Of a stretch of DNA of 64,000 nt, positions 7,539-64,000 are shown piece by piece. Made by a program: the position numbers and the translations under genes. The stretch covers positions 608,001 to 672,000 of the forward strand of contig OZ223270.1 in assembly GCA_965140585.1 (NCBI GenBank), given 5' to 3'. A model generated the notes under the pieces. It did not search any database, was not told the origin of the DNA, and saw only the letters and a list, made by a program, of their open reading frames with translations. Each line of letters starts with the position of its first letter. Within the stretch, counting starts at the first letter, position 1. This DNA comes from Spirochaetia bacterium (GTDB lineage Bacteria > Spirochaetota > Spirochaetia > UBA9216).

Positions 7539-7795
7539 GTTAATTCGGTTCATCATATGGATACCAATACATCTAAGGTTTATATCACTCGAGTTAAATT
7601 ATTATCTAATTAACAAATAGGTAATAGGGAAAAAAGTTGCAAAAAGCTTGGTCGTCCTGTAACTTTTTTCTATGTTCTGTGACTATAAAAAATCACCTAT
7701 TTTATACAAGGACTATTGATGCTTTTTTAACAAAAAGAGATAAGAAGCCCACGCTCCAGGCAGCGATACTGCACCGGAGGGGCGCCTGACTATTA

Positions 7796-8145
7796 CTAGG
7801 GTTTCAAACTCGTTAGATAGTGCATTCCGCCGTTAATTGAACTATCGATAGACTGGACAGGGTTCTTCGAAGTAAAGTCAAAGCCTGTAAACTTGGAAGA
7901 ATCAGTAAGATCAATTGATTTGGAATCGGTGCTCGCATCCCCTTTCTCAACACCTGCACGACCTGAATTAAAGTAACAATTTTTAATGCTATCTTTATAT
8001 CCTATAGTTCCGGCAAAACCTGATACTCCCATTCTTCGGATCACCTTTTACCGCCCCGGCGGCATTGCAGTTTAAAACCTGTTGCCCCGCCACTGCTAAG
8101 GGATGACCGACGGCATGTCCGACAAAGCCGCCGACGCTGCAACAA
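7796..8145 (-). pseudogene. Remnant of a GLUG-motif surface protein (3' end)
   Basis: Manual translation SVGGFVG...VLNCNAAGAVKG, then a frameshift into VSGFAGTIGY...IKNCYFNS...FTGFDF...INGGMHYL; no start or signal peptide. Confidence 0.6.
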
Positions 8146-8178
8146 GCTATGCTGCTTTCGAAGACGGTAGAGCCTTAA

Positions 8179-8352
8179 TCATCGACCATCTGCCTGCTTT
8201 CCCAGAGTAAAAATAATGGCTTGTACTCCTTGATTATTTTTCTGGGTGTGCAAGACTTGCTTGCGAATCAACCTTTGGAGTTTTTTTCTGTAGCGCTTGG
8301 AGAAGATGATTTTGAATACAGATTGGAGGAGTAAAATCAGGAATTTGAACAT
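8179..8352 (-). pseudogene. Possible 5' fragment of an integrase-core transposase
   Basis: MFKFLILLLQSVFKIIFSKR resembles the N-terminus MFSFLCFLLISIFNKFFRKR of the transposase remnant at 58188. Confidence 0.3.
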
Positions 8353-8442
8353 ATTACATTAACGGCAGTCTTTAATAATGGAAGAATTTCCACATTAGTT
8401 GATTAAACTATAGCACGGGACACGATATGTTTCCTTGGTTCA

Positions 8443-9426
8443 TTATTTCTTATTAATTTTTACCCATTCTTGAATTACATTCAATAATTCATTATCATAA
8501 TCGGCATGTTCATATCCTAAAATATCCATTGAATATCCGGGATCAAGAAAAGCATCCATATATTGAAGTTTGGTAAATTTTCCAATATTCAAACCTCGCT
8601 CTATTCCTTGCAGCCGCAGGATAAATGCACTGATGATACCGAACATTTTAAATACGACTGAATATAAAGGTATTATAATTTTTTCTTTTTTTGTTGTTTC
8701 AAAATATTTCTTTGCAAAATCTGTCCATTTATAGTTTTTCCCACCGAGCGGGTATGCTTTACCACCTATACCTTGTTCGATTGCACCAATTGCTGCCTGT
8801 CCAACTTGAACAGCAGTTACGGCAGCTGTACCACCTTTCGTAAAGAAAAGAGTTACTTTCCCTGGTGTAGCAAGCATTGAAAACAGGAATGTCCAAGGGG
8901 GTACTTTACCCTCCTGAGTTCCTAATATATAGGGTAATTCCAAAACAAATGTATCAAATCCTGTACTTGTTTCTTTCAGAACAGCAATTCGTTGTTCTTT
9001 TCTTGTCTTTATATAAATATGGTTGCTTGCCAATCTTAACTTTGGAAATTTATTCTCAAAATAGGTAAAATAACTTCCCAGAACAACGATTTTTTTTACC
9101 CCAACAGCCTTAGCAATTTTAAGAATTTTCAAACATTTTTCTACATGATCTTGATGAAATTGTGGATAAGCAGGGCGTTTGTATGTTTGGCGATCGTCAA
9201 TCCCCAATGCATATACGACCCCTTCTTGTCCGGCCAATATGTTACTTATCTCCTCATCCGTTAATTTATAAATATCACCCTTAACATGCCGTAGATTCTC
9301 ATCAGAAATATTTGTCCTTTCAATATTACCCCGCGAAAGTATCGTAACATTATGACTACGTTTTAATGCTTCATTAGCAATATGAGATCCTAATAAACCG
9401 CTTCCACCAAAAATAAATATATTCAT
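8443..9426 (-). CDS. NAD-dependent epimerase/dehydratase (extended SDR)
   Basis: MNIFIFGGSGLLG Rossmann motif; YIKTR catalytic-like motif. Confidence 0.85.
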   Translation of the reverse strand: MNIFIFGGSGLLGSHIANEALKRSHNVTILSRGNIERTNISDENLRHVKGDIYKLTDEEISNILAGQEGVVYALGIDDRQTYKRPAYPQFHQDHVEKCLKILKIAKAVGVKKIVVLGSYFTYFENKFPKLRLASNHIYIKTRKEQRIAVLKETSTGFDTFVLELPYILGTQEGKVPPWTFLFSMLATPGKVTLFFTKGGTAAVTAVQVGQAAIGAIEQGIGGKAYPLGGKNYKWTDFAKKYFETTKKEKIIIPLYSVVFKMFGIISAFILRLQGIERGLNIGKFTKLQYMDAFLDPGYSMDILGYEHADYDNELLNVIQEWVKINKK

Positions 9427-14533: not shown

Positions 14534-15157
14534 ATGAGCAGACGTGAAATTAATGAAGAACAGCTATTTGATGAAGCGCTAAATGAATTTACAAAATACA
14601 GTTTTGACGAAGCTTCAATAAACAGAATAATAGCAAATGCAGGAATAGCAAAAGGATCCTTTTATTATAGATTTTCAAATAAATATGAACTTTATTTGTA
14701 TTTATTAAAGGAAGCAAATAAAAAGAAATGGGAGTTTATAAAAGCTGATACAAGAAATGAGGAAGAAAGTATCGGGAGTGATATCTTTGCACTCTTTCTC
14801 AAACAAGCCGAGAGCGGCATGCGTTATGCAACAGCACACCCGAAGTTTCATAAACTGAGTAAAATGTTCTCTGCTGAGAAGGGTTCTGCAATTTATAAAC
14901 AGGTTCTTCATGATCTGAAAATGGATGAAGAATCCGGTTTAAGCCAAATTATTGAAGGCTCATATAAGTCCGGAAACTTCAAGGATGAATATTCCTTTGA
15001 GTTTATAGATAAGCTTGTCACGTCATTATTCTATTCGTTCGATGATATTCTTTTTAAAAATGAGGAGTTTGAGCTTGAAAAGGCAATGTCGTTTCTGAAA
15101 GAGTTTATAAACTTTTTAAAATATGGTTTAAAAAATGAGAATCAGGATACTCAATAA
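14534..15157 (+). CDS. TetR/AcrR-family regulator
   Basis: ASINRIIANAGIAKGSFYYRFSNK HTH. Confidence 0.92.
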   Translation: MSRREINEEQLFDEALNEFTKYSFDEASINRIIANAGIAKGSFYYRFSNKYELYLYLLKEANKKKWEFIKADTRNEEESIGSDIFALFLKQAESGMRYATAHPKFHKLSKMFSAEKGSAIYKQVLHDLKMDEESGLSQIIEGSYKSGNFKDEYSFEFIDKLVTSLFYSFDDILFKNEEFELEKAMSFLKEFINFLKYGLKNENQDTQ

Positions 15158-15176
15158 CAGCATCAAAGGATATTTT

Positions 15177-16754
15177 ATGAACAAAAAAATAAAAGATAAT
15201 TTTGTACGCTTTATTCCTGTATTTTTGTTTGTTGCCCTACTTGTTTTAACCGGTTGCGCAACAACTGTAGATCAGGTTAAGGATGATGAGCAACAGAAAG
15301 AAGTGCTTGGCTCTATGGTTTCAACAGAATATGGTCAGTTGTTAGGACAGGATGATGATGAAAATACATGGAGCTGGAAGGGCATCCCTTTTGCAAAGCC
15401 ACCTGTCGGTGAACTGCGCTGGAAAGCCCCGGAGGATCCGGAACCATGGTCAGGTATAAAAGATGCTTCTGAGTTCAGCAATATTGGTGTTCAATATGAC
15501 GGTAATCTTGCCGAAGGACAGAAGGTTATCGGTTCAGAAGATTGCCTCTATTTGAATATCTGGCGGCCCAGAAGCCAGGAGCGGGATCTGCCGGTATATT
15601 TCTGGATCCACGGCGGCGGTAACACCATAGGTTCTGCACGAGACAATGAGGGAATGAGTATTGCAGGACGGGGAAATATGATTGTAGTCACAGTCCAGTA
15701 TCGTCTAGGTCCTTTCGGCTGGTTTACTCATCCTGATATGAGGACCGGCGGCAATGAGCTTGATAATTCAGGCAATTACGGCACCCTGGATATTATAAAG
15801 GCTCTTGAATGGGTACAGAAGAATATTTCTGCTTTCGGCGGCGATCCTGATAATGTAACGGTTGCAGGTGAATCTGCAGGAGGGCTGAATGTATTCACGA
15901 TGATCATTTCACCGCTTTCGCGGGGGCTGTTTAATAAAGCCATGATTCAAAGCGGAGACTTCTGGACAACTACGATGGCTGACGCCGATAAAGACGGTAC
16001 AAAAGTTCTCGAGACGATGCTTAAAGCCGATGAGCTCTCAGAAGTACCGGGAAATGATGTAGCCTCGTATCTAAGAAGTAAAAGCGCAGAAGAAATTATG
16101 AGCATCTACACACCGGGAGCGGCGGGCCTTATTGACCAGCGGCTGGGTGCCTACCTGGATGGAAGGGTCCTTCCTGAATCGGGTATAGCTGTTCTCTCTG
16201 ATCCTTCGGGTTACAATCAGGTGCCCATGATTATCGGAGCTAACAAGGATGAGAGAAAACTCTTTAACTTTTTCTTCTTCACTGAAGAAAATGCCGAAGC
16301 CTATCAGGCCGAGATGGAAACACTGTCTGCTGAATGGATTCGAAACGGAGTGGATCGACCGGTGTCTATGATGAGCGAAAATGCAGGGCAACCGCCGATT
16401 TACGTCTACCAGTTCAATTACGGAAGTTACGATAAGGGAGGTTATAATCCATGGCCGACAGAACAACTTGCTATACAATTCGGCTCATGCCACGCTTTGG
16501 ATATGCCGTTTTTCTGGAATGATTTTCCCTATGCTCCGTATTTCGCGCCTCTTTTTCGAGAAGATAACGCCGCCGGTTATAAGGACTTGAGTGACGCCAT
16601 GATGAGCTATGTTGCTCAATTTGTACACAACGGAGACCCCGGTTCTGTAAATGGTCAGGTCTGGCAAGCCTGGAATACCAAAGCCGGATCTTCTAGGCGT
16701 ATTCTGTTTAATGCAGACTCGGATACGGCCAAAATTGAAATGAATAATGAATAA
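15177..16754 (+). CDS. Type-B carboxylesterase lipoprotein
   Basis: Lipobox LTGC; GIPFAKPP, SEDCLYLNIW, HGGG, GESAGG, H in SCHALD. Confidence 0.93.
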   Translation: MNKKIKDNFVRFIPVFLFVALLVLTGCATTVDQVKDDEQQKEVLGSMVSTEYGQLLGQDDDENTWSWKGIPFAKPPVGELRWKAPEDPEPWSGIKDASEFSNIGVQYDGNLAEGQKVIGSEDCLYLNIWRPRSQERDLPVYFWIHGGGNTIGSARDNEGMSIAGRGNMIVVTVQYRLGPFGWFTHPDMRTGGNELDNSGNYGTLDIIKALEWVQKNISAFGGDPDNVTVAGESAGGLNVFTMIISPLSRGLFNKAMIQSGDFWTTTMADADKDGTKVLETMLKADELSEVPGNDVASYLRSKSAEEIMSIYTPGAAGLIDQRLGAYLDGRVLPESGIAVLSDPSGYNQVPMIIGANKDERKLFNFFFFTEENAEAYQAEMETLSAEWIRNGVDRPVSMMSENAGQPPIYVYQFNYGSYDKGGYNPWPTEQLAIQFGSCHALDMPFFWNDFPYAPYFAPLFREDNAAGYKDLSDAMMSYVAQFVHNGDPGSVNGQVWQAWNTKAGSSRRILFNADSDTAKIEMNNE

Positions 16755-33366: not shown

Positions 33367-34641
33367 TCATCTGTAAAATTGCGTTTCATGGGCCCAAAGA
33401 CCCAGAGCAGGATTCTGAATATAATAGAAATCCTCCCCTTCAGCGTCTCTGTGATACCCGTTCTGTTTATTTTCAACATCAAACAAGGTCATCATTTTTT
33501 TTAGATCGGCAAATTTGAATCCTGCCCCGTTTATTTCCTCCCGGGAAAGATGTCCCGGCGCATATGTAATGGAAAATCGTCCCTCGCCGGAACCGTGGAT
33601 TAAATGGGCGGCAGCACTCAGATTTGATGAAAGTTCCCTGTTGTTTTTCACCGCTTCAAGGGTGGCTGGTGTTCCGTGATATCCATACTTTCTGATCAGC
33701 TTATCTATCTCCGCATCTTCTCCGAATTCCTTCAGGCCCGGTGCAAGAACGATCAGCTCTCCCCCGTCGGCCATAGCCATTCTTGTCCGGTAGATTGCTT
33801 TATTGCCGAGCCAGGTACTGCGGAATTCCCTGGGATCCAGGTAAACCACCGCTCTTTTCAATGGTTTCTCCATCATGTTGAAGTTCACCTCTTTGCTTAA
33901 AGACGCCGCTTTTTGGAAGCATTCGTAACCGTCGCCAATAAATAATCCTCTGACATGTAGTTTCCCGGTTTCATCGGGAGCTACCACCGTTTGGACATAT
34001 AGAATGGGCAGATCGCCAGCAAAATGATCTGTTGCATAGTTAAGAACCTTTCGAACGGGGCTGTCGATTCTTCCCATGATCTTTTCCATGCCGTAGGCGG
34101 CTCCCAGGAAGTGGGATCTGTGAATTCCTTCGGCTCCGCCGGTCCCGACGAAGATGTTCTTGTTGTGATTGGCAAAGCCGATTACCTCGTGAGGAACCAC
34201 CTGTCCTATTGAAAGTATGAGATCGAACCCCCCTTCCACAAGAAGTTTATTAATTTGTGCCGGCCAGTCATAGTCTACAGAACCCCCGGATACCTCCCGC
34301 ACGAAATCTGCAGGAACACGACCGAGAGTGGTAAGATCAGTCCGCCATTTATGCGGGTGAAAGAGTTTATGATCCATTCCCGGAAACATTTCATTAATCT
34401 CTTCGCCGGTCATGGGATAATGCGTGCCAAGAGCCGGCATGACGTGTGTTAGTTTATCGCCCAGGTATTCACTTGCAGCTGCCGTTATAAAGCCCGCCCG
34501 ACTATGTAATCGGGTAATATCGGGGGGGAGGGCCAAAACCTTTTTGATTCCCGTATGCTTTTCCAGGGCCGTTATCAAGCCGGATTTTATTTCGTCATCA
34601 GTGAGGGATATGTCCTTTCTTCCCTTTTCAAAGTAGAGCAT
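33367..34641 (-). CDS. LarA (lactate racemase) superfamily 2-hydroxyacid epimerase; putative mannonate/gluconate 2-epimerase
   Basis: PPDITR, ALGTH, VPHEVIGFANHNK motifs; specificity inferred from the uxaC/uxuB/gnd context. Confidence 0.8.
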   Translation of the reverse strand: MLYFEKGRKDISLTDDEIKSGLITALEKHTGIKKVLALPPDITRLHSRAGFITAAASEYLGDKLTHVMPALGTHYPMTGEEINEMFPGMDHKLFHPHKWRTDLTTLGRVPADFVREVSGGSVDYDWPAQINKLLVEGGFDLILSIGQVVPHEVIGFANHNKNIFVGTGGAEGIHRSHFLGAAYGMEKIMGRIDSPVRKVLNYATDHFAGDLPILYVQTVVAPDETGKLHVRGLFIGDGYECFQKAASLSKEVNFNMMEKPLKRAVVYLDPREFRSTWLGNKAIYRTRMAMADGGELIVLAPGLKEFGEDAEIDKLIRKYGYHGTPATLEAVKNNRELSSNLSAAAHLIHGSGEGRFSITYAPGHLSREEINGAGFKFADLKKMMTLFDVENKQNGYHRDAEGEDFYYIQNPALGLWAHETQFYR

Positions 34642-49080: not shown

Positions 49081-49767
49081 ATGTAGCCGAATATACTCAT
49101 TTTTAATCCTGACCAGATGAGGCGTGATGCACTCGGCCATCTTGGAAGCGATGCAGCGATAATCCCTCATATTGATAAATTTGCTTCAGAAGATGCTGTT
49201 TCTTTCAGCAGCGCTTATAGTCAAAACCCGGTTTGTGTGCCCAGCCGCTGCAGTTTCCTTAGCGGTTTATATCCTCATGTCCGAGGGCATCGAACATTGA
49301 GTCACATGCTTCATCAGGATGAATCTTCTCTCTTTAAAGAATTGTTAGACGACGGTTATTATGTATGGATGAATCCCCGGAACGATTTTCTTCCTGCACA
49401 GAATGAAGGTGTTTTTGATGATACCTCTATATATGTATTAAGTGATCATGGTGATTATATAGGAGATTATGGGATTGCTGAGAAGATACAAAATACCTTT
49501 GAAGAATGCCTGGTAAATGTGCCGTTTATGATTAAACCTCAGAAATATGAGATTGCGCATACTAAAGCAACAATGATACGTTTAGAAAACTTTAAATATA
49601 TTCGTCGTCTTTATGAGCAGGACAAAAGATTCAATTTTGAAATGATTAGGAACAGGGTGAAAAGATTATGTCCTGAACAACTGGTAGAGGAAGTACAGTC
49701 TGATATCAGGAATGGTGCAGATTTATTTCAGCTTTTACAGCGATTAAGGCAGATGAAATCTACATGA
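49081..49767 (+). pseudogene. Sulfatase pseudogene
   Basis: ATG-TAG-PNILIFNPDQMR (stop at codon 2); CVPSR formylglycine motif; SDHGD only about 70 aa later, implying large internal deletions. Confidence 0.82.
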
Positions 49768-50232: not shown

Positions 50233-51849
50233 ATGAAGAAATCTGTAAAAATTATGTTTTTCATTACTCTCGTGGCTATCGCCACACTTGTTATGTCATG
50301 CGTCAGTTCATCTGGTTCGGAACAAGCAGCCACCCAACATATGGATTCAGAATCTATATTGGTAGATGGTGGAAGTATTAGTGGAATTTATTCTGCTGAT
50401 GGTAAAGTTAAAATTTTTAAGGGCATTCCTTTCGCGGCGCCACCGGTCGGTGATCTGCGATGGAAAGCTCCACAGCCTGTAATAGCATGGGATGGGGTCA
50501 AAGAGTGTAATGATTATTCAAATTATGCTTTTCAGAATCCTTTGGCTCCCTATGGACCTTATACGGCGGAATTTAAACCTGACTCGGAGAAAGTTCCCTC
50601 TGAAGACTGTCTTTATTTGAATGTCTGGACTAAAAATGAAAAAATGTCTGAAAAACTTCCCGTTGTAGTTTTCATTCATGGAGGCGGTAATACTTCGGGT
50701 ACATCGGGTAGCTTTGTCTATGAAGGGGAGAATCTTGCCCGAAAAGATGTTGTTTTTGTAAGTATCAACTACAGATTGGGTCTTTTCGGTTTTCTTGCGC
50801 ATCCGGAGTTATCAGCAGAATCCGAGGATGGTGTATCAGGGAATTACGCCATTCTGGATCAGATTGCTGCATTAAACTGGATTCAGAACAATATCGAAAA
50901 ATTCGGGGGAGATCCGGATAATGTGACTCTCGTAGGGCAGTCTGCCGGTTCCATGGATATTCAGTACCTTATTTCTTCACCCATGGCCAAGGGCCTTTTT
51001 GATAATGCGGTTACCATGAGTGCTAACGTGATATTGGACTCCCTGCCGCCTTTAGCCGTAAAGGAAGAAGAAACAGTAAATTTGTTGAGTGGAAAAACTA
51101 TTGATGAATTGAGGGCTATGGAACCGGAGGAATTGTTAAAGATCCGGTATAACGCCGTACCGGTTCTTGATGGTAAAGTTTTAGATAGAGATTTACTTGA
51201 TTCTTACACAGAAGGCTCTGCCGGTGATGTTAATCTCATGACGGGTATGGTTACTCAGGACTCTGTACTGTTTCCTTTTCTCCCGAAAATTGGAGTCAAA
51301 AAGTTCTGGCTTCCGATGACAAGTATTTCCAAAGAAGATTACATATCTGTTGTTGAACAAACTCTTGGCCCATTGGCTGAAGAGGCTCTTGCTTTATACG
51401 CACCGAAATCATCTGAATGCATTGATCAGTATAATGAAATGAATCAGGATTATACGATGGCTTTACAGTCTTTTGTGGGAACTGTAAGAGAGATCAAGTA
51501 TAAAAAATCAACATACATATATAAATTTACTCAGCTGATGCCTGGCCCTGAGGCGTCGCTTAATGGTGTTTTCCATACATCCGATGTTCCATACTGGTTG
51601 AATAATTTCTCACCTGTAAAAGCAGATTACTGGGCAGGTATCGATTATAAGATTGGCGATATTATGTCATCATATTTGGTGAATTTCGCTAAAACAGGAA
51701 ATCCGAATGGCGCCGGACTTCCCGAGTGGGATTCTTTTAATCGTGAAGAGATATCCTATTTGAAAATTGGAGATCCGATTACGACTGTCAAATTCAGTAC
51801 CGAAAAGTATAATTTCTGGAAAGAATATCTTTCAACTGCAGGATTGTAA
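50233..51849 (+). CDS. Type-B carboxylesterase lipoprotein
   Basis: Lipobox VMSC; GIPFAAPP, SEDCLYLNVW, HGGG, GQSAG, FHTSD. Confidence 0.93.
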   Translation: MKKSVKIMFFITLVAIATLVMSCVSSSGSEQAATQHMDSESILVDGGSISGIYSADGKVKIFKGIPFAAPPVGDLRWKAPQPVIAWDGVKECNDYSNYAFQNPLAPYGPYTAEFKPDSEKVPSEDCLYLNVWTKNEKMSEKLPVVVFIHGGGNTSGTSGSFVYEGENLARKDVVFVSINYRLGLFGFLAHPELSAESEDGVSGNYAILDQIAALNWIQNNIEKFGGDPDNVTLVGQSAGSMDIQYLISSPMAKGLFDNAVTMSANVILDSLPPLAVKEEETVNLLSGKTIDELRAMEPEELLKIRYNAVPVLDGKVLDRDLLDSYTEGSAGDVNLMTGMVTQDSVLFPFLPKIGVKKFWLPMTSISKEDYISVVEQTLGPLAEEALALYAPKSSECIDQYNEMNQDYTMALQSFVGTVREIKYKKSTYIYKFTQLMPGPEASLNGVFHTSDVPYWLNNFSPVKADYWAGIDYKIGDIMSSYLVNFAKTGNPNGAGLPEWDSFNREEISYLKIGDPITTVKFSTEKYNFWKEYLSTAGL

Positions 51850-51956: not shown

Positions 51957-53204
51957 TTATATAACTCTGGGCAGGGTTGAACCCCCATACGGCATCACTA
52001 TAATAGAAGCGTTCTTCCCAAGCCTTTCAAGTGCATCATCCAGAGCTTTTCCAACACTATTAAAAGGTTTCATAAAAATTGATTTTACAAGATCATCGTT
52101 TAACTCTGAAACAAGATAGATATCAGCATCTTCAAGAACCAGGGCAATAGCAGCTGCTTTATGTCCTCCTAATTGAAAATTCGATTTGATCCTTTTTATA
52201 AGTGACTGTGAATCCGGTGCAGAAAGCAGCCATTCTTCAAAAACATCCTCACCAAAACCTTCAGCACAGGAGCCGACCAATATAATTATCCCGCCTTTTC
52301 TTACAGCATGTTTTGCATTATCCAGAGCTTTTTGGGTTTGATATAAATTAAGATCTTTCGGTGCTCCGCCCTGTGAAACTATTACGATATCTGCACGAGA
52401 CTTGATATTTTTCAGATAGAGTTTATCGAGAAAGTCACACCCTCTACGGTGAGCCTTGATGAAATCTCCGGCTACCGCAAATATAACCTTTTTATGTGCA
52501 TCAAGTACCACATTAACAATAAAGTCTATAGGACATATCCGCCCGGCCTCTTCAATATCATCCCGGACAGGATTTCCTTCCAGCCGGCCGGCAATTGCTT
52601 CGGGCTGTATCATTTTACTGTGATTTGACTGTATTGCTCTTCGGGTAGATACGCCAGGCATGATTGCTTTTGCGCCTCCGCTGTATCCTGCAAAATAATG
52701 GTACTCAATATTTCCAAGACATATTCTTCTATCTGCTTCAGCTACTCTCCTAGTAATCTCCACAGGGGTTCCGCCCGATGTGACCCCCATTGTTATGATA
52801 TCATTGGGATTTGAATCTACACAGTATATTTCCTTGACAATCTCTGAACCGGCAAGTTTCTCAAATTCCTGAATAGTATGATTCCGATGAATTCCAAGAG
52901 CGAAAACAACCGTTATATCCTCTTTTGCTATACCTGCAGATAATAATTCATCCAGTAAAACAGGCAATACAATAGAGGTCGGAAACGGTCTGGTAATATC
53001 ACTTGTAATAATTACAATTTTCTCCCCCGGTTTTATAATGTTACTTATTCGTTCTGTACCTATAGGATTACGAATGGCCCGCAACACTTCCTCTTTACCG
53101 GAAGATAATATCTCTACGTCATTTGGTTCCAGTATATCAAGAATATTTTCCTCAGGAATCTCTACTTCCTGAGGGCTTTTTCCAAATCCTAGTGACAACT
53201 TCAT
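51957..53204 (-). CDS. larA: Nickel-pincer-dependent LarA-family racemase (possibly malate racemase)
   Basis: SDITR, ALGIHR, EYHYFAGYSGGAK, DLNLYQTQKAL match LarA catalytic His/Lys motifs; substrate inferred only. Confidence 0.85.
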   Translation of the reverse strand: MKLSLGFGKSPQEVEIPEENILDILEPNDVEILSSGKEEVLRAIRNPIGTERISNIIKPGEKIVIITSDITRPFPTSIVLPVLLDELLSAGIAKEDITVVFALGIHRNHTIQEFEKLAGSEIVKEIYCVDSNPNDIITMGVTSGGTPVEITRRVAEADRRICLGNIEYHYFAGYSGGAKAIMPGVSTRRAIQSNHSKMIQPEAIAGRLEGNPVRDDIEEAGRICPIDFIVNVVLDAHKKVIFAVAGDFIKAHRRGCDFLDKLYLKNIKSRADIVIVSQGGAPKDLNLYQTQKALDNAKHAVRKGGIIILVGSCAEGFGEDVFEEWLLSAPDSQSLIKRIKSNFQLGGHKAAAIALVLEDADIYLVSELNDDLVKSIFMKPFNSVGKALDDALERLGKNASIIVMPYGGSTLPRVI

Positions 53205-55844: not shown

Positions 55845-56696
55845 TTACAACTTATTAATGCTTACACCTATATCATACCAGGCCCATGGTTCCGGAAGAA
55901 GAAAAGCTGCACCTGAAGATAATTTTTTAATGTTAACTGCAACTTCTTTGAAATATTCTTCCGTCTTCTCTTTCCCCCATCTTCTATATATAACATCCAT
56001 ATGAAATGGTATGATAAGTTGCGCATGATATTTTACAAATAATTCTGCCAGTTCTTCAGGAGTAACCTGGCCATCACCAAAAAGATCCGCTCCTCCTTTT
56101 CGTACTCCAGCCTGTCGGATGACAACATTTGGAGCATTCTGAAAACACCAGTCAAATATGCCATTGGAATAAGTCTGACCTGAAACGGTTAAGATCTTAA
56201 AGCTATTTTTTGTTGTAATCATATAATCCGTTGATTCAATATTTCCCCAGTCATCACATTCTTTATGTCCTGGAATTCCGAGTTCTTTCATTGCTATATC
56301 ATTATCATCTGAATATAAGCGGGAACCTGTTGGATTATGTTTTGCCTGTAGTATATTTAATTTGAAATCATCTGTAACAATCTCTTGACCGGGATATACC
56401 GGAAAAATATTGTCATAGGAAATTTTATGAAATTTTAATATCGGAACAGTCGAATTACTGCCGGCAAAAACCTTGGAATTAAATTTTCTGACTAAGTCAC
56501 CAAGATTGATATCATGATCAAAATGTGCATGTGTAAGCAGAATATAATCAGCACCTGTTATTTCATCAATCGAGTGCCCTTCCATATGAGGCCCTGTAAA
56601 GAATGGATCAATTATTATTACTTTTCCATTTTCGAGAACGATTTCATGCGCACATCCTGCATTAAATGTTCTTAGCTTAATACTTCTTGAAAACAC
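55845..56696 (-). CDS. Metallo-beta-lactamase-fold hydrolase
   Basis: IIDPF, THAHFDH, IPFH; RBS AGGAGG with GTG start. Confidence 0.88.
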   Translation of the reverse strand: MFSRSIKLRTFNAGCAHEIVLENGKVIIIDPFFTGPHMEGHSIDEITGADYILLTHAHFDHDINLGDLVRKFNSKVFAGSNSTVPILKFHKISYDNIFPVYPGQEIVTDDFKLNILQAKHNPTGSRLYSDDNDIAMKELGIPGHKECDDWGNIESTDYMITTKNSFKILTVSGQTYSNGIFDWCFQNAPNVVIRQAGVRKGGADLFGDGQVTPEELAELFVKYHAQLIIPFHMDVIYRRWGKEKTEEYFKEVAVNIKKLSSGAAFLLPEPWAWYDIGVSINKL

Positions 56697-56807
56697 CTGT
56701 TTCTCCTCCTAAATTGAAGTTGAATAAGTGTATTTCAAGAAATATCGTGCGTCAAATTCAATTTTTTCAAGAAATATCAACTTTTAGTCATCATTATCTG
56801 AAAAAAA

Positions 56808-57722
56808 TTATTTTGAATATTTATCTATGAAAATATCCATTAAAATTTTTACATGATCGATTGAATGGTTCCGATTCCAAACCAGACATAATTCCCGTCT
56901 TTCCGGCTTTTCTCCAAAAGACAATGGAATAATTTTATCAATAAATTTTTCCGAAACTATTGGTTTATCCAGAGTAATCGTTATACCGAGATTATTTGCT
57001 ACACATAAAAGTGACAAATCGACTGTTGGAACCTGAATATCTGTCTTTGGTTTAATATCATAACTTTGAAATACGTAATCAGAAAACTTCTTAATTTTTT
57101 GCTGAGGATACAGCATTATGAAATTTTCTTGCTCAAACAGCTTAATATCTACCCAGGGATATCTGAATTCTTTCTTAGTAACTGCTTTTTTGATCAATGG
57201 ATGATTGGCGGGAACTGCTAAAACGAATTCCTCAAATGAAAGTTTTTGATATAGAAATTTATCCACACGGTTTTCAACCGTCATGATTGCAAAATCCAAG
57301 CGGCTGTCTTCAATCATTTTAAGTAGTTTAACTGTCGTGTTTCCAAAAAAAATAATATCTATTTCCGGATACTTTGATTTAAATTCAGGCATTATTTCTG
57401 AAATGATATTTTCAGACTGAATCAAAGGAAACCCAAAATGAATTCTTCCTGAGCGATGTTCAGCAATATCAATCATCTCATTATGCATTTTCTTCTGTAG
57501 GATTGAAATTTTTCTTGCACATTCAATATACCGTGTTCCAGCATATGTCAAATCAAATTTCTTTCCCACTCTGTCAAATAATGTAACGCCTAATTCCTGC
57601 TCTTTATTTTTTACAAACTTGCTTAATGCCGAAGGAGTGATACATAATTTTTCTGCAGCTCTGATAATACTTTTGTATTTTGCAACTTCAATTATATAAT
57701 CGGTATTTCTATCCATAATCAA
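56808..57722 (-). CDS. LysR-family regulator
   Basis: RAAEKLCITPSALS HTH; LGVTLFDR. Confidence 0.93.
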   Translation of the reverse strand: MIMDRNTDYIIEVAKYKSIIRAAEKLCITPSALSKFVKNKEQELGVTLFDRVGKKFDLTYAGTRYIECARKISILQKKMHNEMIDIAEHRSGRIHFGFPLIQSENIISEIMPEFKSKYPEIDIIFFGNTTVKLLKMIEDSRLDFAIMTVENRVDKFLYQKLSFEEFVLAVPANHPLIKKAVTKKEFRYPWVDIKLFEQENFIMLYPQQKIKKFSDYVFQSYDIKPKTDIQVPTVDLSLLCVANNLGITITLDKPIVSEKFIDKIIPLSFGEKPERRELCLVWNRNHSIDHVKILMDIFIDKYSK

Positions 57723-57804
57723 TCCTTGTTTTACGAATCCATAAAATAAGTTTTTTTAAAACATATAATATCATAGTGCCTTCAAATTTTATATTTGATT
57801 TTTC

Positions 57805-58188
57805 ATCAATCCCCTGATGTGGTCGTTGATGATTATAATAATCAACTTACGATTTGAAGATTCTCCGAATCTGTTTCTTTGAGAAAAGCAGAAAATGCTC
57901 CAGCGCTTCTCTTCCAATAGTTTCATTGACTTGCTCTACAAATGCATTCATATTTTGTGAAGCCAGAGAGATGTCAACATGCGGCTGAATAAGTCACTGC
58001 TTCCTGAATACTATTTACTGTTGTGTAATGAATATCAATGTGATTTTCTTCAGCTCATTATCAATCTTTTTATAATCTCAGAGATAGTTTTCCTTCTTCA
58101 AGAGCAACATTGTTAAAATAATGCTTTTCCTTTTTCTGAAAAATTTATTGAAAATTGATATGAGCAGAAAACATAAGAAGCTGAACAT
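57805..58188 (-). mobile_element. Decayed IS transposase (integrase core domain; IS3/IS481-like catalytic end)
   Basis: Manual translation NMNAFVEQVNETIGREALEHFLLFSKKQIRRIFKS*VDYYNQRPHQGID; N-terminal piece MFSF...LLKKEN; middle deleted. Confidence 0.75.
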
Positions 58189-58441
58189 GATTTGATTATA
58201 ACCAGGAGTTGTAATGTGGTAAATTTACCTAATAAAAACAGTCGAATGTCCCGGATGTAAAAAAAATAAACCACAGGTTCTTTTCCAAAATGAGTCTGGA
58301 AATTCAAATTGTAGTGTAATCCTTACAGAACACTTCGGTATAAGCTACATAAACTTCCCCAATCCTGACATTCGATTTCTAACCCCATCCACTAAACTTT
58401 TAGAAGAGAAATGAGGGGTATTATGCCTGTGCGGATAATCT

Positions 58442-58730
58442 ATGAAAATAAAGCATGATTTCTTATCGGAATGTTGGTTGCCACATTGGTCTGTCATTCC
58501 GTCCCGGAATCGGTTACGGAGGGATGCTCCACATCAGCGAGTATGACCCGGGCTTAGGTTCTGCCTTTGGATTGTTCTATGACAGCCTGGTTAGCCTGTC
58601 GGTCTTTACTACCTATGCCCTGAATCCTGAACTGGAAATATATGTTAACCCCGAATTCCTCATGGTATTCGGCGCAGACGCCATGAATATGGTTATACCT
58701 CTGGGCATCGGCCTCCAGTTCAATCTGTAG
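58442..58730 (+). pseudogene. Chimeric remnant: lipoprotein start fused to the 3' half of the beta-barrel gene
   Basis: 58463-58481 is identical to 62184-62202; from 58483 onward it matches 63379 onward. Confidence 0.85.
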
Positions 58731-58852
58731 AAAGGAGATTACTGTGAAACAATTCAATTCAATATCAAAGCAAGCGGTTCTATTTTTTGTTGTCGTGCTG
58801 GTGCTGAGCCTGGTAACAGCATCCTGCTCAGATTTTTTCACTCTGATGACGG
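58483..58852 (+). repeat. 370-bp direct repeat, copy 1 (copy 2 at 63379-63748)
   Basis: Ungapped alignment at offset 4896, 11 mismatches counted by eye (about 97%). Confidence 0.95.
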
Positions 58853-61140
58853 TTGAAGAGGGAGTAGTATTAGAAGATGTCTACGCTTTCGAGCTATCCT
58901 CAGAGCATTACAACTATGGCGCTGCTGATAAGAATGGCAATCTGGTCTTATACAACATTGACGGGGATACTCCTCTCAGTGCTTCCATTATAACTCAGGA
59001 CAACAGCACTCTAACAGTAGCATTCAATAATGACGGTTATCCTTCACGTATAATAACCGATGAATACATACTGCTTATGGACGGATGGGGTGACGGAACA
59101 GCAGACTTTGCAGTAATTAATGTGGCCGATGAATCCGTGGCGTACTACCCAAATACTCCAGTGGACTATACTCCCGAATCCAGCACTGATTCTTCAGCAC
59201 GTCAGATCAATACCAGAGGATTGTTTGGTGATATAGGAAAGGGACTGAGAAATATCGGTAATGCCCTCAGGTCTGTTGCAACCGCAATTGCAGACTTCCC
59301 TATTCCCAACAATCCAATCACCACTATAATTACCGGTACCGTTAACACCTTGGCGAAGGTTGCCGATGTAACAGCCGACGGGCTGGTGGCAGTAGATGAG
59401 GTGCCATTTGAGAATTTCTTTGAAGACCCCATCGGCATAGCTTCTGAAGTGGTGACTATTGCAGCGGACACTGTTGCCGAAGTAGCTACCCTTGTAGCCG
59501 ATACTGCGGTGGACCTCGTAAATGTATTTTTTGAAGTCGATACAGCTCCACCTGATCCGGTTACTGATCTTGCTGTTTCCAAACCTGAGGATGGAACCAT
59601 TCGATTGAGCTGGACCCCGCCGGCTTCGGATTACGATCATGCAACAGTCTGGTATGGTGAAGGGACTGAAGCCAGTGCAGCTACCACTCAATTCACCGGC
59701 ACAATAGATGCAGGCGGAGCTACCATTTCCGGACTGACAAACTACACAGATTATGTATTTGTGGTAAAAGCCCTGGACTATTTTGAGAATGAGAGCGAAC
59801 CGGCGAGTATAAGCGACCATCCCTTCGACAGAACCCCTCCCGCGGAAGTCAGCGATGTGGTTGTAGCTCTATACGACAATACCTTCCGAATATTCTGGTC
59901 AGACCCGACAGATGCTGATTTCGACAGTATCAAGATCTATTATGGCCCCGGGAACACGGCGGACGATGCAACTACAGAATATACCGGAATCATAGATACC
60001 AGTTATCAGGATCCCGATATGGCCAGAAGTACTTTTACCGGTCTTTCAGAGGGCCAATACGCCATTGTCATCAAAACAGTTGATGATAAAGCCGTTCTGA
60101 ACGGTAGTGCCAATGTCTCCGACGGATATCTTGTGACCCCATGGATGGTTTCCACCACCCCGACTTTAGCCACTGCATCTCCAGGATATGGAGAGCGGCA
60201 AAACTACGAAACCCTGGTATTTGACAACAAGCTTTGGATGATCGGTGGCTCCGGTGGATCAGCCCAGAATGAATTGCAAACTAGTGTGTACAGCTCGGTA
60301 AACGGGACGGATTGGGTTCTGGTAACGGATCAGCCTGAGTGGTATACCCAGCACCAACCTCTCGATCTGAACCAGGAAGACACTACCAAGTACGGAAGAC
60401 AGAAATTTGCCTCAACCGTCTATGACGGAAAAATGTGGGTTATTGGTGGCACCTATGGAGATAACAGATTATTCGACGATGTGTGGTATTCAACCGACGG
60501 GGATACCTGGACTGCAGCCACCCACGAGGCCCCCTGGGGGCCCCAGGCCTATATAGATGCGCTGGAGTTCGATGGAAAACTATGGCTGTTTATCAATAAT
60601 GACTCCATCTGGAGTACCAGCGATGGAAATACCTGGACAGAAGAAGCCTCCAGTGTGCCTTGGCTTACACGGGAACATGAAATTGTAGAATTCCAAGGGA
60701 AGCTTTGGCTCCTGGGCGGAGGTTATGATAACGGTCCAAGTCAACCGCTGTACTACAAGACCAATGATGTCTGGGTCTCTGAAGATGCTGTTACCTGGAC
60801 TCAGGTAACCACAGATGGTTATTTTACCGAAGGTTCGGCTAACTATCACTATTGGGGGGCGGATATCTGGGAAGATCGGGCTGAATTTGCAGCTGCCGTT
60901 GCCTATGTCAGAATCTGGGTTATCGCCGGGCACCCCGCCAGCAACAGCCTGAAAGACATATGGAGCTCTGATGACGGCATTCACTGGGTCAATCTGGATG
61001 CTTCAAATGAAGCCACTTGGTACGACCGGGATGCACATACAGCCGAGTTTTTCGATGGAAAGCTCTTCTTCTTCGACGGCTATTCATTGAATTCGCTGAT
61101 AGCAAACGACTCGACACCGGGAGATATCTGGTACTACTGA
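58744..61140 (+). CDS. Large surface lipoprotein: beta-rich N-domain, amphipathic helical segment, two FN3-like repeats, Kelch-like beta-propeller
   Basis: Lipobox TASC; DTAPPDPV/DRTPPAEV FN3-like starts; repeated (F/Y)DxK(L/M)WxIGG...DVWxSxDGxxW blades. Confidence 0.85.
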   Translation: MKQFNSISKQAVLFFVVVLVLSLVTASCSDFFTLMTVEEGVVLEDVYAFELSSEHYNYGAADKNGNLVLYNIDGDTPLSASIITQDNSTLTVAFNNDGYPSRIITDEYILLMDGWGDGTADFAVINVADESVAYYPNTPVDYTPESSTDSSARQINTRGLFGDIGKGLRNIGNALRSVATAIADFPIPNNPITTIITGTVNTLAKVADVTADGLVAVDEVPFENFFEDPIGIASEVVTIAADTVAEVATLVADTAVDLVNVFFEVDTAPPDPVTDLAVSKPEDGTIRLSWTPPASDYDHATVWYGEGTEASAATTQFTGTIDAGGATISGLTNYTDYVFVVKALDYFENESEPASISDHPFDRTPPAEVSDVVVALYDNTFRIFWSDPTDADFDSIKIYYGPGNTADDATTEYTGIIDTSYQDPDMARSTFTGLSEGQYAIVIKTVDDKAVLNGSANVSDGYLVTPWMVSTTPTLATASPGYGERQNYETLVFDNKLWMIGGSGGSAQNELQTSVYSSVNGTDWVLVTDQPEWYTQHQPLDLNQEDTTKYGRQKFASTVYDGKMWVIGGTYGDNRLFDDVWYSTDGDTWTAATHEAPWGPQAYIDALEFDGKLWLFINNDSIWSTSDGNTWTEEASSVPWLTREHEIVEFQGKLWLLGGGYDNGPSQPLYYKTNDVWVSEDAVTWTQVTTDGYFTEGSANYHYWGADIWEDRAEFAAAVAYVRIWVIAGHPASNSLKDIWSSDDGIHWVNLDASNEATWYDRDAHTAEFFDGKLFFFDGYSLNSLIANDSTPGDIWYY

Positions 61141-61172
61141 TGTTGTGCCGCCGGGTTGGCATAAACAATTAG
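61137..61172 (+). other. Stem-loop directly after the stop codon
   Basis: CTGATGTTGTGCC...GGCATAAACAATTAG imperfect inverted repeat, no U-tract. Confidence 0.4.
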
Positions 61173-61224
61173 AATTGCCAATGGCCCAAAACGAAAGGGT
61201 AAATAAATTATAGGAGAATAAATA

Positions 61225-62145
61225 ATGAAAGAAAAGCGAAACATTTTTATCGGAATATTGGTTGCAGCATTGGTATTGTTTGCTATCGGATGTGAAATAC
61301 CGGGAACAGACGGAGACGGCAGTGACGGAGAAATTGCGGTTACCTTTGAAAGCGCAGTACAAACCGGTGGAACCGATGGCACAGCCGATTCAACAAGTCT
61401 GACGCTGACCTTCAGCGCCGATCCCGACACATTGGCAGCAAGCGATATCACGCTAACGGGAGCGACCAAGGGTACGCTTAGCGGTACAGGAACAACCAGG
61501 ACACTAGCTATTTCAGCTATTACAGTGGGAAATGGGGAGACATTATCGATAGAGATAGCAGACCCAAGCGGGTACACCATAAGCGGCTCACCGCAAACTG
61601 CGGTGGTGTATAGAGATGTAACTTATGAGCTTGGAGACACTGGCCCAAGCGGAGTGGGGATTGTTTTTTATATAACAGATGGCGGACTGCATGGAATGGA
61701 AATTGCGCCTGAAGATCAGGGAAGCTCTGTAGCATGGAGCAATATAGACAATGCTTTTGTTAATGGTGTTGATTCATTACCTGCTGACATAGGTACAGGA
61801 GCTTCAAACACCGATGCAATAATTGCCCAGACTGGTCATACGGCCAGTGCAGCGCAGTTGTGTCATGATTATGCCGGCGGCGGTTTAACTGACTGGTATC
61901 TTCCATCGGAAAATGAACTACTCGAGCTTTATAAAATTTCTATGGGCGATCCTGCTGAAAATGAACATATATCGAATATTCCTGAACTAGATTATCGAAA
62001 CCTTGGCATCTCTGTATGGTACTGGACATCTACCGAAAGTTCTTCTGATTCAGCCGAGCGCCTTCAGTTTGAATGGTCCGGTTCAGGTTCCAATTTAAAA
62101 TGGAAAACCGTATCCATGAAAGTTCGTGCAGTACGAAGTTTTTAA
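61225..62145 (+). CDS. Lipoprotein with Ig-like stalk and C-terminal DUF1566/Lcl-like (C-type lectin fold) domain
   Basis: Lipobox AIGC; GDTGPSG.GIVFY, GTGASNT, DWYLPSENEL, YWTSTE, VRAVRSF*. Confidence 0.85.
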   Translation: MKEKRNIFIGILVAALVLFAIGCEIPGTDGDGSDGEIAVTFESAVQTGGTDGTADSTSLTLTFSADPDTLAASDITLTGATKGTLSGTGTTRTLAISAITVGNGETLSIEIADPSGYTISGSPQTAVVYRDVTYELGDTGPSGVGIVFYITDGGLHGMEIAPEDQGSSVAWSNIDNAFVNGVDSLPADIGTGASNTDAIIAQTGHTASAAQLCHDYAGGGLTDWYLPSENELLELYKISMGDPAENEHISNIPELDYRNLGISVWYWTSTESSSDSAERLQFEWSGSGSNLKWKTVSMKVRAVRSF

Positions 62146-62167
62146 TGAAGGAGAATTAACTATGAAA
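62122..62167 (+). repeat. 46-bp junction repeat, copy 1 (copy 2 at 63026-63071)
   Basis: GTTCGTGCAGTACGAAG(T/C)TTTTAATGAAGGAGAATTAA(C/T)TATGAAA, 44/46 identical; spans last codons, stop, RBS and next ATG. Confidence 0.93.
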
Positions 62168-63049
62168 TCAAAACGAAACATTTTTATCGGAATGTTGGTT
62201 GCAGCATTGGTATTGTTTGCAATTGGATGTGAAATGCCGGGAACAGGTGGTGACGGAGGGGTCTCTCCAACAGCCGTCACCTTCGAGAGCGCGGTCCAAA
62301 CCGGCGGTACGTCAGAAACTGCAGATTCTACAGGCTTAATACTGACATTCAGTGTTGACCCGACGACATTATCAGCAGATGACATTACGTTAACGGGAGC
62401 GACAAAGGGTGAGTTGACCGGTACCGGAACAACCAGAACACTGGCTATTTCAGCTATTACAGTGGGAAATGGGAAAACAGTATCTGTGGCAATCGCAGAT
62501 CCAAGCGGATACACCATAAGCAGCTCACCGCAAACTGCGGTGGTGTATAGAGAAATAACCATCGGCATTGTTCATCAAGGTGGGGTTGTTGCTTATATTC
62601 TACAGGATGGCGACTCGGGATATGTAGCCGGTGAAATTCACGGTCTAATTGCATCAATGGCTGACTTGAGTGATGCCATTAAATGGAACAACGGAAGTAA
62701 CATAGATACAACAGCAACAGGAACAGCAATCGGTACAGGGCAGGCTAACACTACTGCGATTGTAACTGCACAGGGGGCCGGAAGTTATGCGGCACAATTA
62801 TGTGATGATTATATAAATACCGATACCGGGACAGGGGTTTACGACGATTGGTACTTGCCTGCGCGGTTTGAATTAGGTGTACTCCGAGAAAACCAAGCAG
62901 CTATCGGCGGCTTCACCTCCGATGGGGGGTATTGGTCCTCTTCAGAAATCAATAGTGTAACTGCATTTTCGGCAGATTTTGACTCAATGTCGTATTCTGG
63001 TACTTCGAAGGAAACCGATAAAATGGTTCGTGCAGTACGAAGCTTTTAA
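62162..63049 (+). CDS. Paralogous lipoprotein with Ig-like stalk and DUF1566/Lcl-like domain
   Basis: ATG at 62162 after AAGGAG; AIGC; IG..HQGGVVAY, GTGQANT, DWYLPARFEL, YWSSSE, VRAVRSF*. Confidence 0.85.
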   Translation: MKSKRNIFIGMLVAALVLFAIGCEMPGTGGDGGVSPTAVTFESAVQTGGTSETADSTGLILTFSVDPTTLSADDITLTGATKGELTGTGTTRTLAISAITVGNGKTVSVAIADPSGYTISSSPQTAVVYREITIGIVHQGGVVAYILQDGDSGYVAGEIHGLIASMADLSDAIKWNNGSNIDTTATGTAIGTGQANTTAIVTAQGAGSYAAQLCDDYINTDTGTGVYDDWYLPARFELGVLRENQAAIGGFTSDGGYWSSSEINSVTAFSADFDSMSYSGTSKETDKMVRAVRSF

Positions 63050-63065
63050 TGAAGGAGAATTAATT

Positions 63066-63626
63066 ATGAAAGAAAAGCGAAGAAGAGTAACACTTCTAGT
63101 AGTAATCTTCATTGCTGCTGCATCTGCGCTGGGAGCGCAAAGCCTCTCAGACGTTTACGTTGGCGCATCGGGCAGCATCCCTCTGGGGGATTACCGCAGC
63201 ATATACAGCGTTGGGGCAGGAGCCCAGGCGGGAGTTACCGTCGAAGTTCCATTTCTTCCCGGATTGGGAGCAGGCGCTCAGTTAAGCGGATCCTACCAGT
63301 TCCCCGCCGGCTCGCAGATCAGTCTGCTCATCGATACAATTTGGCAGATAACGGCTAACTACGAAATCAGTCTGGATGACATTGGTCTGTCATTCCGTCC
63401 CGGAATCGGTTACGGAGGGATGCTACACATCAGCGAGTATGACCCGGGCTCAGGTTCTACTTTTGGATTGTTCTATGACAGCCTGGTTAGCCTGTCGGTC
63501 TTTACTACCTATGCCCTGAATCCTGATCTGGAAATATATGTTAACCCCGAATTCCTCATGGTATTCGGAGCAGACGCCATGAATATGGTTATACCTCTGG
63601 GTATTGGCCTCCAGTTCAATCTGTAG
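63066..63626 (+). CDS. Small outer-membrane beta-barrel protein (putative 8-stranded)
   Basis: Signal peptide ending ALGA, alternating Gly/hydrophobic strands, C-terminal GIGLQFNL; ATG after AAGGAG. Confidence 0.7.
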   Translation: MKEKRRRVTLLVVIFIAAASALGAQSLSDVYVGASGSIPLGDYRSIYSVGAGAQAGVTVEVPFLPGLGAGAQLSGSYQFPAGSQISLLIDTIWQITANYEISLDDIGLSFRPGIGYGGMLHISEYDPGSGSTFGLFYDSLVSLSVFTTYALNPDLEIYVNPEFLMVFGADAMNMVIPLGIGLQFNL

Positions 63627-63748
63627 AAAGGAGATTACAGTGAAACAATTCAATTTAATATCAAAGCACGCGGTTCTATTTTTTGTTGTCGTGCTGGTGC
63701 TGAGCCTGGTAACAGCATCCTGCTCAGATTTTTTCACTCTGATGACGG
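63379..63748 (+). repeat. 370-bp direct repeat, copy 2
   Basis: Matches 58483-58852. Confidence 0.95.
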
Positions 63749-64000
63749 GGACAGATTCGGAAGGGCAAGCTACAGATGCTGAGATAGTTGCAGACGATAA
63801 GGCTGCCCTTGATATTACATTTTCAGGGACTGATACGCTAACTTCAGTAACAGGCAATCTAACTTTACCGACATCCGGATCAGCCGGCTCCACTATCACA
63901 TGGGCAAGTGATACAGAGACGGTAGTTGCAGCAGATGGAACAGTTACAAGACCTGCTTTTTCTGATGGTGATGCAACTGTGGTAATGACAGCTACGATTA
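63640..64000 (+). CDS. Surface lipoprotein with Ig-like (atrophied Big-type) repeat, runs off the right edge
   Basis: Not in the ORF track. GTG start; same leader as the 58744 gene, then SVTGNLTLPTSGSAGSTITWAS...DGTVTRP...DATVVMTATI. Confidence 0.85.
   Translation, partial: MKQFNLISKHAVLFFVVVLVLSLVTASCSDFFTLMTGTDSEGQATDAEIVADDKAALDITFSGTDTLTSVTGNLTLPTSGSAGSTITWASDTETVVAADGTVTRPAFSDGDATVVMTATI

Follow-up and report, generated by a model that had tools for sequence, protein, structure and literature searches.

A 370-bp direct repeat in a spirochaete outer-membrane gene cluster, probably a scar of rearrangement and not a device for swapping surface domains

Does a block of DNA that sets the same leader in front of two unrelated surface lipoproteins belong to a device for exchanging surface domains, or is it what past rearrangements left behind? 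The question is raised by a gene cluster at the right-hand end of a 64,000-nucleotide stretch of DNA (here called the window) from a Spirochaetia bacterium (contig OZ223270.1, positions 608,001 to 672,000). An earlier note, made from the letters alone, had described this cluster as a modular array in which conserved connectors serve as sites of recombination or conversion that repeatedly swap surface payloads. From 58.4 kb to the window end every relevant gene is on the + strand, and the cluster comprises three DUF1566/Lcl_C C-type-lectin-like lipoproteins (A, B and P0023), the fn3/Kelch lipoprotein P0024 and one 8-stranded barrel. We think it likely that this is simply a co-oriented cluster of outer-membrane protein genes, in which a 370-bp repeat is the scar of duplication or conversion combined with illegitimate recombination. 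The features that the argument needs are the following, with lengths in amino acids (aa) for open reading frames (ORFs) and RBS standing for ribosome-binding site.

58442..58490, + strand: decayed leader remnant of the DUF1566 type (A/B-type), 80-81% identical to the A and B gene starts
58455..58730, + strand: truncated barrel ORF P0001, 91 aa, with barrel residues 105-186 of 186 and no signal peptide
58483..58852, + strand: copy 1 of the 370-bp repeat, with the barrel 3' part, a 13-nt spacer with RBS and 36 leader codons
58744..61140, + strand: lipoprotein P0024, 798 aa, with a leader with lipobox Cys28, an unassigned region, fn3 and Kelch repeats
61212..61622, + strand: 5' block of A, 79.6% identical over 412 nt to 62149-62559 of B
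61225..62145, + strand: DUF1566/Lcl_C lipoprotein A (P0026), 306 aa, Cys23, Lcl_C at 39.3 bits
62122..62177, + strand: junction block from the end of A across the spacer into the start of B, 91% identical to 63026-63081
62162..63049, + strand: DUF1566/Lcl_C lipoprotein B (P0027), 295 aa, Cys23, Lcl_C at 32.3 bits
63066..63626, + strand: intact predicted outer-membrane barrel P0025, 186 aa, with a Cys-free signal peptide and eight long strands
63379..63748, + strand: copy 2 of the 370-bp repeat, with the barrel 3' part, the spacer and the start of P0023
63640..64000, + strand: 5' part (first 120 codons) of lipoprotein P0023, with ~530 nt more beyond the window end

The two copies of the repeat lie in direct orientation at an offset of 4896 bp, and over 370 bp they are 97.03% identical (E 3.6e-178). 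In each block the barrel gene supplies its final 248 nt; a spacer of 13 nt that includes AAGGAG comes next, and the following gene adds its first 36 codons and one further nt. Mismatches number 11 and occur throughout the block, eight in the barrel part, one in the spacer and two in the leader. Five of the eight barrel-part mismatches are silent and three codons are altered (L129S, A132T and E154D), while the leader mismatches give S6L and Q10H. An exact 41-nt stretch of the leader occurs twice in the window, compared with no occurrence in 100 shuffles. The edges of the block are sharp, since the 60 nt on each side are just 20-30% identical when compared without gaps, and identity between the copies stops directly after ...SCSDFFTLMT. 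The ~97% identical block and its abrupt end 8 residues after the lipidated Cys were both claims of the earlier note, and both are borne out by these numbers. The note had further reported a 16-nt start common to the barrel gene and the lipoprotein gene at 61225; this turned out to be a shared stretch of 29 nt (63053-63081 of the barrel gene versus 61212-61240 of A, 93%), to which the 56-nt junction block is added, whose mate at 63026-63081 reaches from the last part of B through the spacer to the beginning of the barrel gene. The conserved blocks that span gene junctions thus measure 370 nt (97%), 56 nt (91%) and 29 nt (93%).

Beyond the right edge of the repeat the two lipoproteins have nothing in common. 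A lipobox pattern modelled on the PROSITE rule matched P0024 and P0023 at Cys28 and A and B at Cys23, and found no match in the barrel P0025. By Pfam, P0024 has an fn3 domain (39 bits) and Kelch_1 (34 bits), and an atlas search with its residues 37-262 gave no usable match. The part of P0023 inside the window matches aBig_2 at 92.6 bits, so the payloads that follow the shared leader are unrelated as had been claimed, fn3 plus Kelch in a protein of 798 aa versus aBig_2. By searching with the 40 N-terminal residues of P0023 we recovered the full protein, which is 296 aa long and has aBig_2 followed by Lcl_C, the latter a PF07603 match precomputed in the database. On this domain content P0023 is the third DUF1566 lipoprotein of the cluster, and what had been called the second large lipoprotein is a protein of modest length that itself carries a DUF1566/Lcl_C domain. 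Only the C-terminal part of its structural model was interpreted, the N-terminal half being poor. This modelled C-terminal domain (predicted local distance difference test, pLDDT, mostly 85-95) matches 8q4e_A with E 2.9e-7, a target TM-score (TMt) of 0.83 and a root-mean-square deviation of 2.5, and its weaker structural matches are C-type-lectin-like. As for the other two, the gathering cut-off of Lcl_C (PF07603, DUF1566) is 34.9 bits, so A lies above it and B just below, and B matches A by BLASTP with E 9e-74.

The left edge of copy 1 is of a different kind. The remnant at 58442-58490 consists of a start codon, an n-region and an h-region that resemble 61225-61274 and 62160-62211 at 80-81%; it has a 1-nt deletion and has lost GGAG, and the frame read from the ATG at 58442 ends at a stop at 58546. 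The remnant joins the barrel at ACATTGGT. The matching place in the A and B leaders is GCATTGGT, and the intact barrel has ACATTGGT at codon 105. Given this overlap, the join would be the product of illegitimate recombination at a 7-nt microhomology (CATTGGT). Since the leader remnant is ~81% and the barrel part 97% identical to their counterparts, copy 1 is a composite of parts of different ages, and because its two parts differ in age its left edge is a rearrangement junction and not the end of a connector. The half-barrel P0001 has strands 5-8 only and is without strands 1-4 and the signal peptide, and to judge from these losses the 91-aa ORF is probably a dead pseudogene. The unit of DUF1566 lipoprotein, barrel and large lipoprotein that was said to occur at least twice does therefore not do so, as its supposed first occurrence is a 49-nt decayed leader remnant followed by the 3' half of a barrel gene.

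Putting the two edges together, we infer the following events. The two blocks of barrel, spacer and leader, with ~3% divergence, would be related by a recent duplication or by gene conversion. At the left edge of copy 1, illegitimate recombination at CATTGGT would have linked an old leader of the DUF1566 type to the interior of a barrel gene, leaving the dead half-barrel. At the right edge, the common leader, lipobox and 8-residue tether would have become joined to two non-homologous mature parts, so that P0024 and P0023 share their RBS, signal peptide, lipidation site and tether and presumably follow the same export route. Some observations sit less easily with a scar. Neither leader copy is damaged, each has a strong RBS, and the payload genes behind them are open, so the block is in use at both places. 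Among the eight substitutions in the half-barrel, five are silent and three alter codons, and these small numbers, if anything, fit a recent loss of function or conversion better than long decay. Because three junction-spanning blocks lie within 5.5 kb and A is a mosaic, recombination here also looks recurrent and not like a single accident.

The mosaic structure of A is seen from pairwise identity counts among three sequences, A, B and P0023. A and B are identical at 106/130 positions in the N-terminal part and at 57/149 in the Lcl_C part, while A and P0023 are identical at 37/113 and 84/154 positions, respectively; for B and P0023 the Lcl_C part gives 56/134. A thus pairs with B in its N-terminal part and with P0023 in its Lcl_C part, and the 5' and 3' relationships are incongruent. 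The mosaic in A, together with the one leader on two unrelated mature proteins, supports the view that modules were exchanged in the past of this cluster. The diverged C-terminal parts may instead reflect fast evolution of a ligand-binding face rather than recombination.

Relatives of these proteins in other genomes have similar features. Named protein matches are annotated as "DUF1566 domain-containing protein" of Spirochaetes, Spirochaetia and Spirochaetota metagenome-assembled genomes (MAGs), and in species genomes the closest relatives of the Lcl_C part come from Spirochaetota MAGs and one Fibrobacteria MAG (L002) at 43-53% identity (L001-L006). Some of the 360 relatives of A are longer forms in which the A-type N-terminal module is repeated. 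Three proteins (P0038, P0073 and P0128) have 66-69% identity to about a third or more of A and have PF03781 (SUMF1/FGE-sulfatase type) in place of Lcl_C; we read the part they have in common with A as its N-terminal module from which domain is missing. PF03781-type and Lcl_C domains are both folds targeted by diversity-generating retroelements (DGRs). As relatives join the A-type N-terminal module to other domains, domain shuffling is ordinary in the family of A. A Leptospirales MAG (L012) has two tandem DUF1566 lipoproteins whose leaders and first ~60 residues are almost identical and which then diverge. In this MAG a 391-aa protein whose C-terminal half matches the barrel-family profile precedes the tandem pair, and the whole arrangement spans 6047-8522.

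If the repeats were connectors of a swapping system, more copies might be expected, and we searched a collection of ~15 billion proteins for them. The leader search covered proteins of 211-2000 aa in 5.8 billion clusters, and of its 34 candidates just P0023 and P0024 had the leader at E <= 0.1. The 90% cluster of the barrel has two members, P0025 and P0001, both on one 709,359-bp contig, and A, B, P0023 and P0024 are each singleton clusters from the same contig. A near-length search with the intact barrel in the 5.8 billion clusters was empty because the cluster representative is the 91-aa P0001, which is outside the length range searched. For the leader and for the barrel cluster, therefore, only two copies are found among the proteins searched, which, as far as these data reach, agrees with what the earlier note itself had named as speaking against a cassette system. 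That both copies are embedded in one long contig, in different ORFs that run on cleanly, and differ at 11 positions spread over the block also makes it highly improbable that the repeat is an assembly artefact, whether a collapsed or a chimeric join, and we found nothing in favour of one.

A programmed system in which the connectors act as recombination or conversion sites, repeatedly swapping surface payloads for variation, would account for one leader on two unrelated payloads, for three conserved blocks that span junctions and for the mosaic in A. We nevertheless regard it as very unlikely. The repeats are in direct orientation, so recombination of the RecA type would excise or amplify the 4896 bp between them and leave the payloads unexchanged; the databases searched contain just two copies, one of which is cut down to a pseudogene at a microhomology junction. 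Each of the four lipoprotein genes has a complete ORF, an RBS and a leader, and the window has no silent, promoter-less or leader-less payload cassettes and no further payload repeats. Between 55 and 64 kb no inverted repeat exceeds 22 nt, those present are scattered, and no tandem repeats were found. Pfam found no recombinase, transposase or reverse transcriptase domain in 44 ORFs (41 large ORFs of 1-54.4 kb and three flanking genes), whose content is transporters, regulators and enzymes, so the earlier statement that the window has no recombinase or reverse transcriptase stands for intact genes in the ORFs scanned. From the cassette proposal, then, we retain past recombination of modules, for which the shared leader and the mosaic in A argue, and give up the payload-swapping system, against which the direct repeats and the two copies argue. 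Because DUF1566 is a recognized DGR target class, we also looked for a template repeat for A and B. DUF1566-type variable repeats (VRs) make up 14% (51) of the DGRs surveyed in one study (PMC5758913), and divergence among A, B and P0023 is greatest in their C-terminal parts. A DGR as the source of the variability of the DUF1566 lipoproteins is nonetheless hardly credible, given that the 44 ORFs contain no reverse transcriptase, that nothing in the window resembles a template repeat for the 3' end of either A or B, and that the 370-bp repeat would stay unexplained.

Reading the repeat as a scar places the locus closest to the lpl genes of Staphylococcus aureus. There the conserved unit begins in the 3' portion of an ORF, crosses the spacer and ends in the 5' portion of its neighbour, and is explained by ordinary recombination, unequal and homologous, with deletions, duplications, apparent conversions and substitutions as its products (Tsuru and Kobayashi 2008, PMC2568036). 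The likeness extends, on that description, to tandem, co-oriented lipoprotein paralogues (here A, B and P0023), to conserved units of 3' ORF, spacer and 5' ORF (here of 370, 56 and 29 nt), to incongruent 5' and 3' relationships within one ORF and to an explanation that needs no dedicated enzyme. In lpl, many copies and strains were compared and the crossover site is a central conserved region present in every ORF. Here, in contrast, there are two copies of the main block, one of them truncated, the upstream partner is a barrel gene and not a paralogue, the block edges are non-homologous junctions, and a single strain is represented.

The Vpma/Vsp/Vsa inversion systems of Mycoplasma are likewise surface lipoprotein gene families with conserved 5' regions. 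Their switching depends on recombination sites in the 5' untranslated regions, on one promoter only and on a tyrosine recombinase gene next to the family (xer1, mbr or hvsR) (PMC2268961), whereas our window has direct repeats and neither a recombinase nor inverted sites were found in it. With DUF1566 (CLec2) DGR targets such as LdtA of Legionella, a surface lipoprotein (PMC5758913), the cluster shares DUF1566 surface lipoproteins with a variable C-terminal part, but the window holds no reverse transcriptase and no pair of template repeat and VR. Finally, the C-terminal domain of the Legionella pneumophila adhesin Lcl (PDB 8q4e) is the structure on which the modelled C-terminal domain of P0023 superposes, and Lcl_C is found in A, B and P0023. 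Unlike Lcl, these proteins have no collagen-like region, their N-terminal modules are aBig_2 or unassigned and Ig-like, and they have lipoprotein leaders; the NCBIfam model adhesin_Lcl scored far below its cut-off.

The barrel gene, which contributes most of the repeat, deserves a description of its own. The AF2 model of P0025 has a signal helix and eight long strands (pLDDT 92.8, predicted TM-score 0.80), and Foldseek matched it to OmpA-TM, NspA, Ail, OmpX and OmpW with probability 1.0 and query TM-scores (TMq) of 0.55-0.65. On the model, P0025 is an 8-stranded OmpA/OmpX-like outer-membrane barrel; it shares with the OmpA transmembrane domain, OmpX, Ail, NspA and OmpW a signal peptide and eight long antiparallel strands, and differs from them in being only 8-18% identical in sequence. 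No Pfam cut-off was reached by P0025, whose match to OMP_b-brl (PF13505) has E 0.3 and 11.7 bits against a gathering cut-off of 28.7 bits, while 6/18 members of the barrel family match OMP_b-brl at E <= 1, the best at 4e-05. TraO, DUF2715 and OMP_b-brl came up as leads in the atlas search and were set aside as look-alikes only. The family is small: a HMMER search of 1.84 billion representatives found 22 relatives at E <= 0.001, the closest full-length one being 35% identical, and none of the 538 pattern matches from a scan of 185,579 species genomes was confirmed as a relative.

Could the barrel and the lipoprotein that follows it work as a pair in the outer membrane, with the barrel anchoring the lipoprotein or helping to display it and the block kept near-identical by conversion or by selection for co-adaptation? 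A gap of 13 nt, which includes the RBS, separates the barrel stop from the lipoprotein start, and in L012 the 391-aa protein (6047-7222) is directly upstream of the two DUF1566 lipoprotein genes with a gap of 12 nt, its residues 234-391 matching the barrel-family profile (hmmsearch E 3.1e-10; hhalign probability 94.9, E 4.1e-8). A hidden Markov model (HMM) of the barrel family had two matches among the ORFs of 50 aa or more in 26 DUF1566 loci of other genomes, and Pfam was run on 59 of the 142 locus ORFs, those nearest the DUF1566 match in L001-L013, L016, L017, L021, L022 and L025. A true barrel-family neighbour is present in just one of the 26 foreign loci. None of the five closest Spirochaetota loci (L001 and L003-L006) has a barrel, several of these contigs being short. 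P0024 is without a barrel of its own, since the neighbouring copy is a dead half-barrel, and an 8-stranded barrel of ~160 residues would be too narrow for a translocon. On balance we find such a pair unlikely. We are a little more doubtful still of its extension to a two-gene display module of Spirochaetota, in which the barrel partners the next lipoprotein and selection or conversion preserves the fit between the barrel and the N-terminus of the lipoprotein as displayed domains are exchanged. The placement of lipoproteins on the spirochaete surface is only partly understood. A Borrelia LptD homologue is the subject of a relevant preprint (bioRxiv 10.1101/2022.12.21.521298).

The other HMM match, L025 6919-7392 (E 5.3e-4), was ruled out as a barrel because Pfam identifies it as Por_Secre_tail. 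In three Bacteroidota loci (L008 7068-7553, L013 9664-10146 and L025 6919-7392) a ~160-aa Por_Secre_tail protein, with the sorting domain of the type IX secretion system (T9SS), adjoins the DUF1566 gene.

To the left of the array, between it and a LysR gene, is one further feature.

57709..57993, - strand: possible remnant of the C-terminus of an rve-type DDE transposase, in two frames, with sub-threshold matches

Its first fragment (57709-57846, - strand) matches rve_3 with E 0.0021 and 18.2 bits, the cut-off being 26.5 bits. Matches of the candidate to the NCBIfam IS3 and IS481 models (E ~0.08) are also sub-threshold, tblastn against plasmids gave E values of at least 0.3, in part under IS6 transposases, and the second fragment had no match. 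A short rve-type transposase remnant beside the array is thus possible and a weak lead. G+C rises at the left edge of the array, from 0.31-0.33 (56000-58500) to 0.45-0.52 (58500-64000), and since the window spans 0.33 to 0.48 per 2 kb the array is not a G+C outlier. A scan for promoters and terminators found 10 and 3 sites, respectively, no excess over shuffle means of 12.1 and 5.1, and blastn of 58400-64000 against plasmids gave no match. Elsewhere in the window, a 216-aa ORF at 49117-49767 (+ strand) covers just positions 12-112 of the 301-position Sulfatase profile and may be a truncated gene. There are also two carboxylesterase-family genes (15135-16754 and 50233-51849) and two LarA-like (Lar_N) genes (33367-34641 and 51957-53204).

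As it stands, the finding is of little consequence, and it would gain weight if it were true that the barrel partners DUF1566 lipoproteins. Its interest is in the way such genes may come about. Taken as the product of rearrangement, the locus clearly illustrates how mosaic genes for surface lipoproteins would arise, in a spirochaete lineage that is poorly sampled, from duplication, deletion at a microhomology and the capture of a leader, and how sharp boundaries that look like those of connectors can be the scars of rearrangement instead of functional sites.

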